From NCBI GenBank assembly GCA_013335095.1, contig JAAXWF010000001.1, positions 445,984-509,983 on the forward strand: a DNA stretch of 64,000 nt. The letters run 5' to 3'. Each line of letters begins with the position of its first letter. The first letter of the stretch is position 1. The position numbers are program-made. Shown here one piece after another: positions 33,001 to 64,000 of the stretch. Source of the DNA: a candidate division WWE3 bacterium. Lineage in GTDB: Bacteria; Patescibacteriota; 4484-211; GCA-002791395.

Positions 33001-36000
33001 AGTAGACCATCCTTGCAAGCTTTGTGACATACCCGTGGTCGTTCTTATTAACAAAGGTTCGGCAAGTGCTTCAGAAATTCTTGCGGGAAGTATTCAGACG
33101 CGAGGACGGGGTAGATTAATTGGTGAAAAATCATTTGGAAAAGGCACAGTACAGGAAGCTATCGAATTGCGAGACGGTACGAGTCTCCATGTAACAACCG
33201 CACGGTGGTTAATGCCTAATGATCAAAACATACATAAGGTTGGTTTAACTCCTGATATCGAAGTTTCAACAGAAAACGCTAGTGGACCTTTTGGAGATGG
33301 TAGCGACGATGCCCAGTTGCAAAAAGCAATTGAATCTTTCAGATAATTCTCAGAAACTTAGATATAATAAATTAAATGAATAGTTCAACGACCCAAAACA
33401 ACACTATCCGAATCATACTACTCATGCTGGTGTTATTAATCGGCGTCGCTGTATTAAAGCAATATACTCCCGAACTTCGTAGTTATCTAAGTAAGGAAAT
33501 ACCAGCGCTTAATATTACTCCTGCTGATTCTTCAAATAATTCAACTTCAAACGGTAATACTACTGTAGTGCAACAAAATGTGAGTTTAGTAGAAGAAGAA
33601 TCCGAAACGATTAAGGTTGTAGAGATGGCTTCACCGGCTGTTGTCTCGGTAGTCGAAAAAGCTGTCGATTATGATTTTTTTAATGGACTTCAGACTCGTG
33701 AAGCATCGATAGGAACAGGTTTTGCGGTAGAGAAAAATTTAGTTGTATCTAACAGGCATGTTGTCGAGGATAGTACCGCAACATATTCAGTTGTAGACAA
33801 TGCAGGAAATAAATACGAGGTAACCAAAGTATACCGAGATCCGCTCAATGATTTAGCGCTACTTGAGGTCAAGGATGGTAACTTTCCAACACTCACACTT
33901 GGAGATTCTGATTCAGTCAAAGTTGGACAAACTGCAATCGCGATCGGAAATGCCTTGGGTAAATTTGATAATACGGTAACCAAGGGGGTTATTTCTGGTA
34001 AAGGTCGAGGTATTACGGCTTCTGGTGGTATTAGCCAATATCAAGAAGATATCGAAAACCTATTACAAACCGATGCTGCGTTAAATCCTGGAAATTCAGG
34101 TGGACCGCTTCTTAATATAGGGGCTCAAGTTATCGGTATTAATGTGGCAGTTAGCTACAATTCGGAAAACATAGGGTTTGCTATACCAAGTAATGTGGTA
34201 AAAGGTTTGGTTGATGATTTCAAAAATGGTGTAGAGCGAAAGCGTGCATACCTTGGCATACAATACGCAATCATTACTCCTGATTTTGCACGTAATTCTG
34301 AATTCCCAGAAGGTGCGCTAGTACGTCAGGTCATTGCCAGTAGTCCAGCTGCAAAAGCAGGAATCAAGGTAAACGATGTTATTATTAGTATTGATGGCAC
34401 TGCTATAAACGAAAACAACCTATTGGCAGATTTCATTCAACATAAAAAAGTAGGGGATCAGATTACCGTAAAATATTGGAGAAATGGTTCAGAACAAGAA
34501 ACTAAGATAACCCTTGAAGGCGCACCAGATGTCACCGAGTAACCATCCTGTTTTAATATTTAAACAGTAGAAAAAAATATAGATTTCAAAAAGGCCGGAG
34601 CTTTGAGTCCTTTTTAAGGGACTCAAAACCCCGGCGGTCTTTACCGGTTGTTGTAGTTGATGACCAAGTCGGATTCCTCCTCCGACTGGTTTTTCTCAAG
34701 AAGCCGACTTATCAGCTCGGCATATACTCGCAGTATAGCCGAGATATCGGTGATCTGCGGCCCTTCCAGTTGATCACAACCTGTCCCGACGACCAGGATG
34801 TAGTTATTCTGACCGAATCGGGTCAGCGATTCAACTTGTAATCGGATTTCATCCAGGGTAATCGTCAGTGCGATCCCCTGATAATGTGTCCGGTCACAAT
34901 GCCACAGCAGCGTATGCTTCCGACGTTTGGCCCGAGCTTCGAATTCGGGCGTTACGTCGGTCCAGTATGCCAGGTATCCACCTGGCGTTTCGACCCGAAG
35001 CAGGGTCATCGTATCAACGGAGCCCAATATGGACTCTCCTTTCCCCCCATAAGGGGGATACTCCAAATTACCGGCCTAATATAATTATAGGATAACTGAG
35101 ATGTAGAATCAAACGCTTCAAATTATACGAACATCAGAAAGTTTACTTTTGTTGAGCGGCAAATGATGTCTTAAGCGTACGAACTGCTGATAAAATAGGG
35201 TCTTGAGTGGGAACGACGCTTCCTAGGAAATGAAAACCGATAACTAATAAACCAGCTGCGAAAATAGCAAACATGTAGATCTCTTTATTTTCTTGTGCAA
35301 ATTGGTATGTTTTTTCTCGTAACGCCATACAAAAATTATAATCTTCAATATAAAAAAATGCAATTATTGAACTACTGAAAACACGTTGCCAACGATAGCT
35401 CCATCAGCAGGTGAGTTATTCGTACCATCGCTTACGGTACCTGTTGCAGATATCGTGACCGTTCCTGCCGTTGTTGTTGAAACAATTGCACTTGCTACGG
35501 TAGCATTCTTATGTCCTTTTTGACTTAATACTACGCACCGATTTGTATCACGAATAACTCCGGTATTACGAAACGCTAAACCACCGCATACAACATCATC
35601 AAGTGTCGCTCCACCTGCCGTAATGGTAAAGTCTGCTGCAGTGACTGACATTTTTGGTGAGTCGAGGACAATTGGTACGATTACTTTTTTGCCGACTTTA
35701 ATGTCATCACCCGAAATCTCATATTCAAGCGTTGTTAATGGAGAATTTTCTGAGACAATCTCATTTTTAGTTCGTGTTGTGCCTGTTGCAATAACCGACA
35801 AAGTCCCGGCTGGTCCCGTTGTCACCACCGCTTGAGCAATACTTCCATCACTCTTACCATCCGGATTGGTAACGAGACAGCGGGAACCTCGGCTTCTAAC
35901 TTGATCCGAAGTAAAATCGGAACCGCCACACTGAAGTTCTACCAATACACCACCGGTTACGTTTACCGTAAAATCTAGCTCGGTAGCGGCTACATCACCA

Positions 36001-63000: not shown

Positions 63001-64000
63001 TCGCCGAAGTTCCGGAGTGGACCTATCCAGACGAATGGACCAAATATACCTCACAAACTTCAAATCCGATTCAGTTAATTGCAGGTAAAAAGTATTTTGT
63101 CGAAATATTACAAACCGAAAGTGTTGGGGCGGATAGTGTAACGCTCGCATGGATTCAGCCAGGAAGTACAACCCGCGAAATTATTCCAGATCAGTATTTT
63201 AGCGCACCAACGGTTGCATCACCTTCGGCGGACTTAAATATCGATGGGCGAGTGGATGTGTTTGATTTAGGGATTTTGGCGGCTCACTATGGTCAAACAA
63301 TCGTAAGTTCCAGTGATACGCCCACCTATCGATCGGATGTGAACGGAGATAATACAATCAATGTGTTTGACCTGGGTTTGCTAATAGGACAATATAGTCA
63401 TTAGTAATTTTTGACTTTTTAAGCATGAGCCATATAGACAAGAAAAAAACATCCAACCAACTTTTTTTATTGATCTCTTCGATCGGAGTTATGGCTTTTT
63501 TGTTAACCGCAACACAGTATCCAAACTGGTACGATAGCTTTTTTCCTAAGCCTAAAAGTGAAGCTGCTGCAATCAACGGACCGTTACGTAAAAATACCGC
63601 AAATCCACGATATTTTACGAATAACTCCGGCAAATCGATTTATCTGACCGGCACACATACCTGGACGATTCTACAGGAATCGCGTACGGTAAATGCTGCA
63701 TTTTCAAATGTTTCAAATGACGTATATTTTAAAGCACTTACCGATAATAAACATAACTTTATTCGCCTCTGGAATGCAGACAATTTTATTGTGGATTGGG
63801 GTACATCGTCTGCGCCATTTGAAGAATGTATGGTTCCACATCCTTTTGCCTTAACTTCACCAATCACTGCGACTGATAATTCGGATTATTGTAATAAACT
63901 CTACGCAAACTTTTCACAATCAAACCCACCAATCAAATTCGATTTATCGAAGCTGGATTCAACATTCGTGAGTAAGCTGCGAAGTGTAATCGAAACCGCC

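Follow-up and report, generated by a model that had tools for sequence, protein, structure and literature searches.

Proteins encoded in a metagenome-assembled genome of candidate division WWE3 share an N-terminal leader that is conserved and lineage-restricted, as an earlier note on this DNA had proposed, that is independent of the mature domain behind it, and that we also find in about 108 proteins from other samples spanning more than 60 extracellular domain families. Judged from its sequence, the leader is probably an extended signal peptide of the Sec type, about 55 residues long, that is specific to its lineage, keeps a fixed register and has a predicted cut after Ser-x-Ala. On this best reading its users are WWE3 and Microgenomates members of the Patescibacteria (CPR), which would employ it for exported enzymes and cohesin/dockerin proteins. 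Such a long leader is apparently undescribed so far; our literature search found no paper describing it, and Pfam and NCBIfam models gave no leader match on the window proteins, on consensus leaders or on 61 full-length members.

CPR bacteria make up a large share of bacterial diversity, are almost all uncultured, and are thought to live from a host or from their surroundings, so that exported proteins are central to their biology. Standard predictors may take so long a leader (about 55 residues), with its helix of transmembrane length, for a membrane anchor, or for no signal at all; if they do miss it, exo-hydrolases of WWE3 and Microgenomates would be misfiled as membrane or cytoplasmic proteins. 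The leader profile provides a simple, specific handle for listing this cargo, and the more than 60 domain families that it already connects include a cohesin/dockerin system. Should a dedicated reader lie behind the strict conservation, that would point to an undescribed sorting step in the monoderm-like CPR envelope.

In the window, that is, the whole stretch of 64,000 nucleotides analysed, the strict motif PKxxSxA[AS] occurs six times in the six-frame translation (about 128,000 residues), against 0.15 expected (the mean of 300 residue shuffles, in which the maximum was 2). Every one of the six copies lies 41-62 residues past an upstream stop, in a long ORF and directly behind a hydrophobic helix. 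The leader peptides quoted in the earlier note are all present where it placed them, except that the last gene starts at 63425 and not at 63426. It had listed seven members: a family profile matches six of these at the N-terminus but leaves the gene at 48800-49990 (HIPRERGHVAG) unmatched, which is therefore at best a degenerate relative, and the same can at best be said of the gene at 55374-57398. Beyond that list, a 61-aa remnant gene is an additional, weakly matching member. The features are as follows; ↓ marks the predicted cut, and scores come from a family profile whose 98 input leaders stem mostly from other organisms, and its window matches are all N-terminal.

35143..35328, minus strand: 61-aa leader-only ORF, ending ...VVPTQDPILSAVRTLKTSFAAQQK and a stop; weak match, 13.7 bits.
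36060..36227, minus strand: leader, aa 1-56 (...LNPKPASFA↓S), of a 287-aa protein, gene 35364-36227; strict motif, 53.9 bits.
42688..42825, minus strand: leader, aa 1-46 (...LFPKPESEA↓A), of a 140-aa leader-plus-dockerin protein, gene 42403-42825; strict motif, 52.1 bits.
49772..49990, minus strand: doubtful or degenerate leader (...HIPRERGHVA↓G) of a dockerin plus alginate-lyase protein, gene 48800-49990; transmembrane helix, Pfam domains.
53358..53543, plus strand: leader, aa 1-62 (...VFPKSNSQA↓A), of a 671-aa DUF5060/apiosidase-like hydrolase with a C-terminal dockerin, gene 53358-55373; strict motif, 28.3 bits, Pfam domains.
55374..55535, plus strand: possible degenerate leader, a transmembrane helix then FRANLPQFARINESRTIYGA↓T, of a 674-aa CBM4_9/dockerin protein, gene 55374-57398; single N-terminal transmembrane helix, small residue at -1.
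58052..58255, plus strand: leader, aa 1-68 (...IDPKSTSFA↓A), of an 877-aa beta-helix/PA14/dockerin protein, gene 58052-60685; strict motif, 34.8 bits, Pfam domains.
60741..60911, plus strand: leader, aa 1-57 (...LFPKEESHA↓A), of an 887-aa GH42-like/PA14/dockerin protein, gene 60741-63404; strict motif, 48.3 bits, Pfam domains.
63425..63565, plus strand: leader, aa 1-47 (...FFPKPKSEA↓A), of a protein truncated by the window end; strict motif, 45.8 bits.

In the six confident leaders the hydrophobic helix ends in an aromatic residue (or Met) followed by Pro, much as the anatomy had been described, and the first Pro stands about 10-12 residues before the PK box. The cargo behind these leaders is varied. 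The 140-aa protein carries Dockerin_1 at aa 57-114, and an orthologue from another sample (P0133) retains LYPKPKSSA↓A. In the 671-aa hydrolase the catalytic domain (KWTVYE...) begins 9 residues past A↓A, where the ordinary signal peptides of its homologues end. The full protein of the gene at 63425 has 760 aa (P0136), and a longer copy of the gene lies on a Logan contig (L012). The 287-aa protein contains two Cys-containing beta-sandwich, cohesin-like modules; cohesins are among its best single-domain fold matches, and a sequence search of it against the PDB gave nothing meaningful. The 61-aa ORF is likely the remnant of a decayed dockerin-protein gene: the syntenic locus of a relative (L027) encodes at its position a dockerin protein of 590 aa whose leader is degenerate in a similar way (...RPNSFAA↓G). 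This ORF scores 67.9 bits with the window-derived profile, but it is itself a seed sequence of that profile. The leader of 48800-49990 went undetected by the family profile at E<=1, a leave-one-out search missed it too, and that of 55374-57398 has no PK box and was likewise undetected.

DNA-level repeats among the window genes are confined to C-terminal dockerin modules and none is common to the leaders, so leader similarity is maintained at the protein level and does not stem from recent duplication. Recent duplication or gene conversion was rejected as a cause, since only the dockerin ends repeat in DNA and WWE3 and Daviesbacteria leaders sit on unrelated cargo. Co-inheritance with the mature domain was rejected as well: 120 homologues of the DUF5060 hydrolase have ordinary signals, which in other phyla are either standard signal peptides or lipoprotein signals.

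A profile of the window leaders searched against 1.84 billion proteins returned 111 matches at E<=1e-3, about 108 of them genuine and all at residues ~1-85; three top matches, P0134, P0166 and P0222, were discarded as internal-repeat artefacts. Carriers that have names belong to WWE3 and Candidatus Daviesbacteria. Other searches were less productive. A word-indexed homology search, which is insensitive to a motif of this kind, led from the 140-aa protein to one orthologue and from an alignment of 98 leaders to three short proteins only. Scanning metagenome contigs gave nine loci and needed the narrow pattern LFPKP[PS]SHA, and scanning genome contigs with poorly chosen peptide patterns gave distant Elusimicrobia-type loci only.

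The family consensus, ..LLLxAxxGLLxFLxxSxT-(F)PFKDxLFSxL(F/Y)PKPxSxA↓A, is much sharper than the window motif. In a logo of 107 members anchored at the predicted site, about 42 positions keep one register, and not a single indel interrupts the stretch between -42 and +1. The most conserved positions are Ala at -1 (100%), Lys at -6 (97%), Ser at -3 (96%), Pro at -7 (93%) and Leu at -9 (90%); Phe at -26 (89%) and Gly at -30 (79%) are conserved within the helix, and +1 is Ala, Gln or Ser. The small residues at -3 and -1, with no Pro at +1, agree with the earlier suggestion of a signal peptidase I site. Just past Ala-Ala the information content drops, with 2-4 bits giving way to 0.1-0.3 bits from +3 onward, and such a collapse is the appearance expected of a cleavage boundary. 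The n-region has a median length of 16 and is net positive in 80% of members, and the predicted mature start falls at a median of residue 56. In a divergent leader, on a GDSL-lipase/dockerin protein of a leader-carrying genome, the PK-box Pro is lost, and the Lys and ASA↓Q are kept.

The motif lies 13-16 residues past the best 19-residue hydrophobic window. This long spacing was previously described as an over-long c-region; we reinterpret the segment as a second, Pro-flanked amphipathic helix. With that helix stopping at -8 and Pro at both -7 and -5, the local geometry appears close to that of a normal signal peptidase I site. Structure models are consistent with this layout. In a single-sequence AF2 model of the 140-aa protein a helix spans residues 2-38 and confidence is low from residue 43; for the 287-aa protein, modelled with a 9-sequence alignment (pLDDT 81.6), a helix at 14-37 is followed by a break and a helix at 43-48, residues 49-57 (NPKPASFAS) are of low confidence, and beta domains begin at residue 61, so that the mature domain starts 4 residues beyond the site.

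How might such a leader work? The positive n-region and the 19-21-residue hydrophobic helix, with its conserved Gly and Phe, would insert N-in and probably engage SRP/SecYEG. The Pro-Phe-Lys-Asp turn would end the membrane helix at the outer face, and the short amphipathic helix (xLFSxLF/Y), predicted as helical in two AF2 models, may lie on the membrane surface. Pro(-7)-Lys(-6)-Pro(-5) would then break the helix and hold Ser(-3)-x-Ala(-1)↓Ala(+1) in extended form for type I signal peptidase, which, to go by the conservation, would free the mature protein. Freed enzymes could dock through their own dockerins, and membrane proteases, for which the M50/RseP homologue at 8804-9895 is one candidate, would presumably remove the leftover leader. 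With ordinary Sec peptides cut by type I enzymes (LepB/Sip) the leader shares a positive n-region, an h-region, a helix-breaking Pro shortly before the site, Ser and Ala as the small residues at -3 and -1, and extracytoplasmic cargo. It differs in its length (about 55 residues against 20-35), in an h-region of full transmembrane length, in the additional Pro-flanked amphipathic helix between h-region and site, where an ordinary c-region has about 3-7 residues, and in holding a fixed register, with a virtually invariant charged Lys at -6, across unrelated cargo. That cargo is diverse and uniformly extracytoplasmic, with 62 Pfam families in 61 proteins, among them dockerin (13) and subtilases (5), as well as glycoside hydrolases, CBMs and cohesin.

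Several properties sit less easily with a signal peptide. The first hydrophobic helix is long enough for a stable anchor; the putative site lies 19 residues beyond the transmembrane helix, which is atypical for signal peptidase I; and the generic enzyme needs neither a charged Lys at -6 nor such strict conservation. A few carriers are cohesin-like scaffold candidates, which might be expected to be cell-bound.

Why hold so long a leader in one register? The invariant register and near-invariant Lys suggest a reader beyond the generic -3/-1 rule. It is possible, though on balance we doubt it, that the leader serves as an address for an export or processing route specific to CPR, one that has its own reader and sorts released dockerin-type exoenzymes from ordinary Sec cargo. 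A specialised signal peptidase or another membrane factor may, on that account, recognise the Gly/Phe helix face, the PFKD turn and Lys(-6), and by analogy the route would be the Patescibacteria counterpart of YSIRK or SipW systems.

In another reading, which we think unlikely, the leader is the recognition tag of a dedicated machine, be it a specialised signal peptidase paralogue, another membrane protease or a sorting factor, that would keep this class of cargo apart from ordinary Sec substrates, as with YSIRK- or SipW-type leaders in Firmicutes. The absence of indels over 42 positions, the helix Gly and Phe and the near-invariant Lys(-6) far exceed what generic signal peptidase I needs; ordinary short signal peptides, of the AxA type found in leader-carrying genomes, are present in the same loci; and leader genes are clustered, with 5-6 in the last 11 kb of the window, three in a row in each of two other loci (L021 and L030) and two in a third (L025). 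Against it, no peptidase or sorting gene recurs beside leader genes in the ten loci with Pfam gene tables, and CPR genomes are small. The earlier suggestion of a dedicated peptidase or rhomboid found no support here: neither a signal peptidase nor a rhomboid gene was seen in the window or in the gene tables of those ten loci, and no S26 peptidase gene in the window or the retrieved loci. A C39-like peptidase lies near leader genes twice (L014, L025), and an HtrA/S41 pair only within the WWE3 synteny block. An S24 gene (L024) immediately precedes a gene for a Y-family polymerase (IMS) and is thus more likely half of a UmuD/UmuC-type pair than a signal peptidase.

None of the known leader systems compared here matches the leader in sequence. 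YSIRK-G/S and KxYKxGKxW signals of Firmicutes surface proteins are likewise Sec variants of restricted lineage and conserved sequence; only some of the large exported proteins carry them, ordinary signal peptides exist alongside, and they are believed to direct cargo to a particular secretion site or route. Their conserved motif, however, lies in the n/h region, whereas that of our leader stands between the h-region and the predicted cleavage site, and YSIRK-type cargo usually bears LPXTG, which the leader cargo does not; [YF]S[IL]RK occurs in 0/107 leaders, and the YSIRK models (TIGR01168/PF04650) gave no Pfam/NCBIfam match. The SipW-dependent type (TasA/CalY class, TIGR04088), whose conserved leaders depend on one particular signal peptidase, is the model for a dedicated-peptidase reading; we found no sequence similarity or NCBIfam match to it (window proteins, consensus leaders, 61 members), and no SipW-like gene was seen near leader genes. 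ESPR signals of proteobacterial autotransporters and two-partner secretion resemble the leader in being ~50-60 residues long, with a conserved extension, on large secreted proteins, but theirs is N-terminal to a normal signal peptide in diderm Proteobacteria and ours C-terminal to the h-region in CPR; leader n-regions are variable, and PF13018 gave no Pfam match on leaders even at E<=10. The RRxFL twin-arginine motif of Tat signals and the lipobox of lipoproteins each occur in 0/107 leaders, only one of which contains any Cys.

Could the leader simply stay in the membrane? As an uncleaved type II signal-anchor, its 20-residue helix would tether enzymes and cohesin-like proteins to the cytoplasmic membrane, and PFKD...PKPxSxAA would be a juxtamembrane stalk or interaction motif. 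The full transmembrane length of the helix, its continuity in AF2, the distance of the motif from the best hydrophobic window and the 287-aa cohesin-like protein, which has the leader and no other obvious anchor, all speak for this. We nonetheless consider it improbable. Conservation stops exactly at a textbook -3/-1 pair, and the window's membrane-anchored exo-enzymes lack the motif (HtrA and MreC have a plain N-terminal anchor; PBP2 and the S41 protease do not match the leader profile). The cargo is made up of dockerin-bearing soluble exo-hydrolases; if tethered, their domains would begin only ~25-30 residues out from the membrane, beneath the cell wall, and one carrier (L019) has a C-terminal transmembrane anchor as well.

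Cleavage might instead fall where the first helix stops (..A/S-S-T↓F-P-F-K-D), leaving FPFKD...(F/Y)PKPxSxAA as an N-terminal tag on the mature protein; its invariant Lys would accept sortase-type cross-links, as the YPK motif does in the pilins of Gram-positive pili. Conservation of the (F/Y)-P-K triplet stands at 92-97%, positions -22 to -20 often hold small residues, one locus (L014) has a 76-aa leader-only gene immediately before a sortase gene, and WWE3 genomes are reported to encode sortases (PMC3812714). Even so, we hold this to be very unlikely: Thr at the would-be -1 is 50% conserved against 100% for Ala at the distal site, the likeness to the pilin motif amounts to three residues only, and a sortase adjoins a leader gene just that once in about a dozen loci. 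No LPXTG-like partner signal appears in the last 45 residues of the 107 members, and, as distinct from LPXTG and PEP-CTERM sorting signals, the leader is N-terminal.

Least credible of all is class III processing, in which prepilin peptidase would cut '(N/D)Q(K/R)G' before the helix and leave a pilin-like N-terminus, as in archaeal sugar-binding proteins: a short charged n-region often ends in Gly before the long hydrophobic helix (xxG-xx(P/H) directly before it in ~40% of members), Gly is the commonest residue at -42 (31%) and type IV pilin genes are present in leader-carrying genomes, but G-F-x-x-x-E, or Glu at +5, occurs in 0/107 members with no N_methyl match, the n-region of about a quarter is of the KKTR type and lacks Gly (the remaining third being unclassified), several window leaders lack Gly there too, the conserved part lies beyond the helix and not at the n/h junction, and the genuine pilins of a leader-carrying genome look different, reading RG↓FLLLE and RG↓FTTVE.

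The six-frame translation of the window holds six copies of PKxxSxA[AS]; residue shuffles average 0.15 and never yield more than 2. All six lie 41-62 residues past an upstream stop, in a long open reading frame (ORF) and immediately behind a hydrophobic helix. The genes that carry this strict motif are as follows; the earlier note had placed the last start at 63426.

Leader genes of the window with the strict motif PKxxSxA[AS]
start 36227, minus strand, strict-motif leader gene
start 42825, minus strand, strict-motif leader gene
start 53358, plus strand, strict-motif leader gene
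start 58052, plus strand, strict-motif leader gene
start 60741, plus strand, strict-motif leader gene
start 63425, plus strand, strict-motif leader gene

NCBI lists identical proteins as NTV308xx (locus tags HGA91_), from a 536-kb contig of a WWE3 (CPR/Patescibacteria) MAG, and the window proteins are also present in the Logan assemblies of run SRR11449211. The six leaders align without large gaps and have the anatomy first described from the sequence: a helix of ~20 residues, an aromatic residue (or Met) plus Pro, 10-12 further residues, and (F/N/D)PK-xx-S-x-A-A. DNA-level repeats of the region are confined to C-terminal dockerin modules, with none in the leaders, so it is as proteins that the leaders have stayed alike.

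We built a profile from nine leaders, eight of the window plus an orthologue, and ran it with no word index on 1.84 billion representative proteins; 111 matched at E<=1e-3. Three are internal-repeat artefacts; the others all match at residues ~1-85, bearing out the N-terminal placement of the motif that the earlier note proposed. Members outside the window share the consensus ..LLLxAxxGLLxFLxxSxT-(F)PFKDxLFSxL(F/Y)PKPxSxA↓A (the arrow marks the putative cut), which is far sharper than the window copies. Anchored on the PK box, 107 members keep a fixed register from -42 to +1, counted from the putative cut, with no indels, and both the FPK box and the S(-3)/A(-1) pair claimed from the window proved to be conserved across the family.

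Conservation of leader positions (position, residue, share of the 107 anchored members)
-30, G, 79%
-26, F, 89%
-18, P, 80%
-17, F, 66%
-16, K, 52%
-15, D, 56%
-13, L, 79%
-9, L, 90%
-8, F/Y, 92%
-7, P, 93%
-6, K, 97%
-3, S, 96%
-1, A, 100%
+1, A, 70%

Positions from +3 on carry only 0.1-0.3 bits of information, down from 2-4 bits, and mature proteins are predicted to start at a median of residue 56. The n-region, with a median length of 16 residues, bears a net positive charge in 80% of members; it ends in (N/D)Q(K/R)G-xx(P/H)-LLL in ~40% (e.g. proteins P0202, P0228 and P0185) and is of KKTR type in about a quarter. The former ending resembles a prepilin cleavage box lacking Glu at +5.

Turned back on the window ORFs, a profile of 98 leaders recovers 36227(-), 42825(-), 60741, 63425, 58052 and 53358 at 28-54 bits, and weakly matches a 61-aa ORF at 35143-35328(-). 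Six of the seven leader proteins listed at the outset thus stand; the seventh (48800-49990) has no match to this profile, nor has its neighbour 55374-57398, and their leaders are degenerate versions at best.

The leader works like other conserved signal-peptide variants (YSIRK-G/S, KxYKxGKxW, ESPR and SipW-type), without belonging to any of these groups. Neither Pfam nor NCBIfam has a model that fits it in the window proteins, the consensus leaders or 61 full-length members; Tat, lipobox, prepilin and YSIRK motifs are negative in the 107 members; and the literature searched, including papers on CPR genomes and envelopes, does not mention it. We therefore rank it as an apparently undescribed variant of conserved signal peptides. 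In a Microgenomates genome paper, all glycoside hydrolases of the genome were inferred to be intracellular because no signal peptide was recognised (PMC7143001); conclusions of this type could fail for any genome that uses the leader.

What the leader is attached to varies widely. By Pfam, the window mature parts comprise a DUF5060/apiosidase-like hydrolase, a beta-helix/PA14 protein, a GH42-like/PA14 protein and a dockerin-only protein, all four with dockerin type I modules; Pfam matches neither a 287-aa protein nor the part of the gene at 63425 that lies in the window. Among the 61 full-length members, Pfam recognises 62 different families, every one extracytoplasmic, including dockerin (13), Big_7 (8), subtilases (5), LamG, CBMs, several glycoside hydrolases, metalloproteases, phytase and cohesin. 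None of the 120 best homologues of the DUF5060 hydrolase, from other phyla plus one Woesebacterium, has the long leader; what they carry instead is a short signal peptide of the usual kind or a lipoprotein signal, and the window protein's catalytic domain starts 9 residues past Ala-Ala, the end point of the homologues' ordinary signal peptides. Window HtrA and MreC have a plain N-terminal TM anchor without the motif, and PBP2 and the S41 protease are unmatched by the leader profile. Ordinary short AxA-type signal peptides coexist in leader-carrying genomes. A 103-aa protein at 47207-47518(+), which starts with a classical short signal peptide (..SVSSVSA↓ES) and has a hydrophobic helix at its C-terminus, shows such coexistence in this WWE3 genome.

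How would such a leader act? The evidence fits best with an extended Sec signal peptide that is probably cut after S-x-A. The N-terminal position, positive-inside charge, hydrophobic helix and near-invariant -3/-1 pair are observed, and conservation ends exactly at the putative site, on exported cargo only and at the place of the homologues' ordinary signal peptides. The protein would be targeted through SRP/Sec and cut after S-x-A, and the remnant would be cleared by RseP-type proteases. In the AF2 models a TM helix breaks off at Pro, a short helix then covers DLLNRL/KLF, confidence is low over PKPxSxA, and the first beta domain begins 4 residues past the putative site; by helical-wheel arithmetic on the consensus F(-17)..F(-8), F-17, L-13, F-12, L-9 and F-8 share a half-turn face, with polar residues opposite. 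Going by models and wheel together, this interfacial helix probably holds the putative cleavage site at the membrane surface, which would explain how signal peptidase I could still act 19 residues beyond the TM helix.

The near-invariant Lys(-6), the Gly and Phe inside the helix and the absence of indels exceed the needs of a generic signal peptidase I, which leaves room for a dedicated reader. The co-occurring peptidase or rhomboid suggested earlier did not appear: neither the window nor the Pfam gene tables of ten loci contain an S26 signal peptidase or rhomboid gene, and no partner gene recurs near leader genes there. A sortase lies beside a leader gene once (locus L014) and a C39-like peptidase nearby twice (L014 and L025). 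At L014 23-1005, a 76-aa gene consisting of a consensus leader plus ~22 residues (PANTFVPVVPQLPPNGTGRIN) ends 1 nt before the sortase gene, whose product has its own TM anchor; the C39-like peptidase gene follows on the opposite strand.

Among named organisms, the leader occurs in this WWE3 genome and in Candidatus Daviesbacteria of the Microgenomates group (MBI3486368.1, GCA_016195715.1; a locus with two adjacent leader genes). A second contig of the WWE3 genome encodes a near-consensus leader (P0137, HGA91_03920) and, nearby, a GDSL-lipase/dockerin protein whose leader is degenerate but retains ASA↓Q. Further loci are from metagenomes of groundwater (e.g. Hainich 0.1-µm fractions) and from a 1.18-Mb contig. 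Leader genes are clustered, with three consecutive in each of two loci (L021 and L030) and five to six in the window's last 11 kb. A second, shorter conserved leader type, ..(E/R)xG-(V/I)xHIL..LLAGIIAGVYLVQQTQIFxP(K/R)A.., ending in a P-K/R-A box directly behind the helix, occurs in Microgenomates loci L029 (2226, 2906, 12072) and L025 (7299) and was not found in the window. This second type hints that signal peptides of the lineage may commonly have a Pro-Lys box ahead of the cut.

Behind its leader, the 287-aa protein (35364-36227(-)) has two similar Cys-containing beta-sandwich modules (CGG...C; AF2 pLDDT 81.6), with cohesins 5n5p_A, 6kgc_A and 3l8q among its best single-domain fold matches; related modules in L030 weakly match Pfam Cohesin. 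These modeled modules, together with the many dockerins, suggest a small cohesin-dockerin system in a WWE3 bacterium. In the syntenic locus L027 of a relative (1590-4340), the place of the 61-aa leader-only ORF 35143-35328(-) and of an orphan 141-aa ORF at 34641-35066(-) is taken by two longer genes. One, lying between the 287-aa gene and the HtrA/S41 pair, encodes a dockerin protein of 590 aa whose leader is similarly degenerate; the other encodes a membrane protein of 311 aa. The two window ORFs look like remnants of gene decay in this genome. Four genes in a row end in dockerin modules that are direct repeats of one another over 176 nt (55197-55372, 57222-57397, 60509-60684 and 63228-63403), the first two copies 89% identical and the others 60-64%, a pattern that points to a recent duplication or gene conversion confined to the dockerin end.

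Elsewhere in the window, short islands of 50-55% GC in this ~40% GC genome (~1-2000, 7000-8000, 16000-18500, 21000-22000, 29000-30000, 46000-48000 and 50000-51000) lie between housekeeping genes and hold orphan ORFs rich in Arg, Gly and Trp. Three islands scanned (ORFs 45822, 47586 and 50015) gave no Pfam match, and 28780-29190 and 29346-29759 are the only mutual paralogues among the island ORFs. A 316-aa ORF at 50925-51875(+) matches two ribonucleotide reductase domains, the ATP-cone and the N-terminal all-alpha domain, only weakly and below threshold; it may be a fragment, either truncated or diverged.
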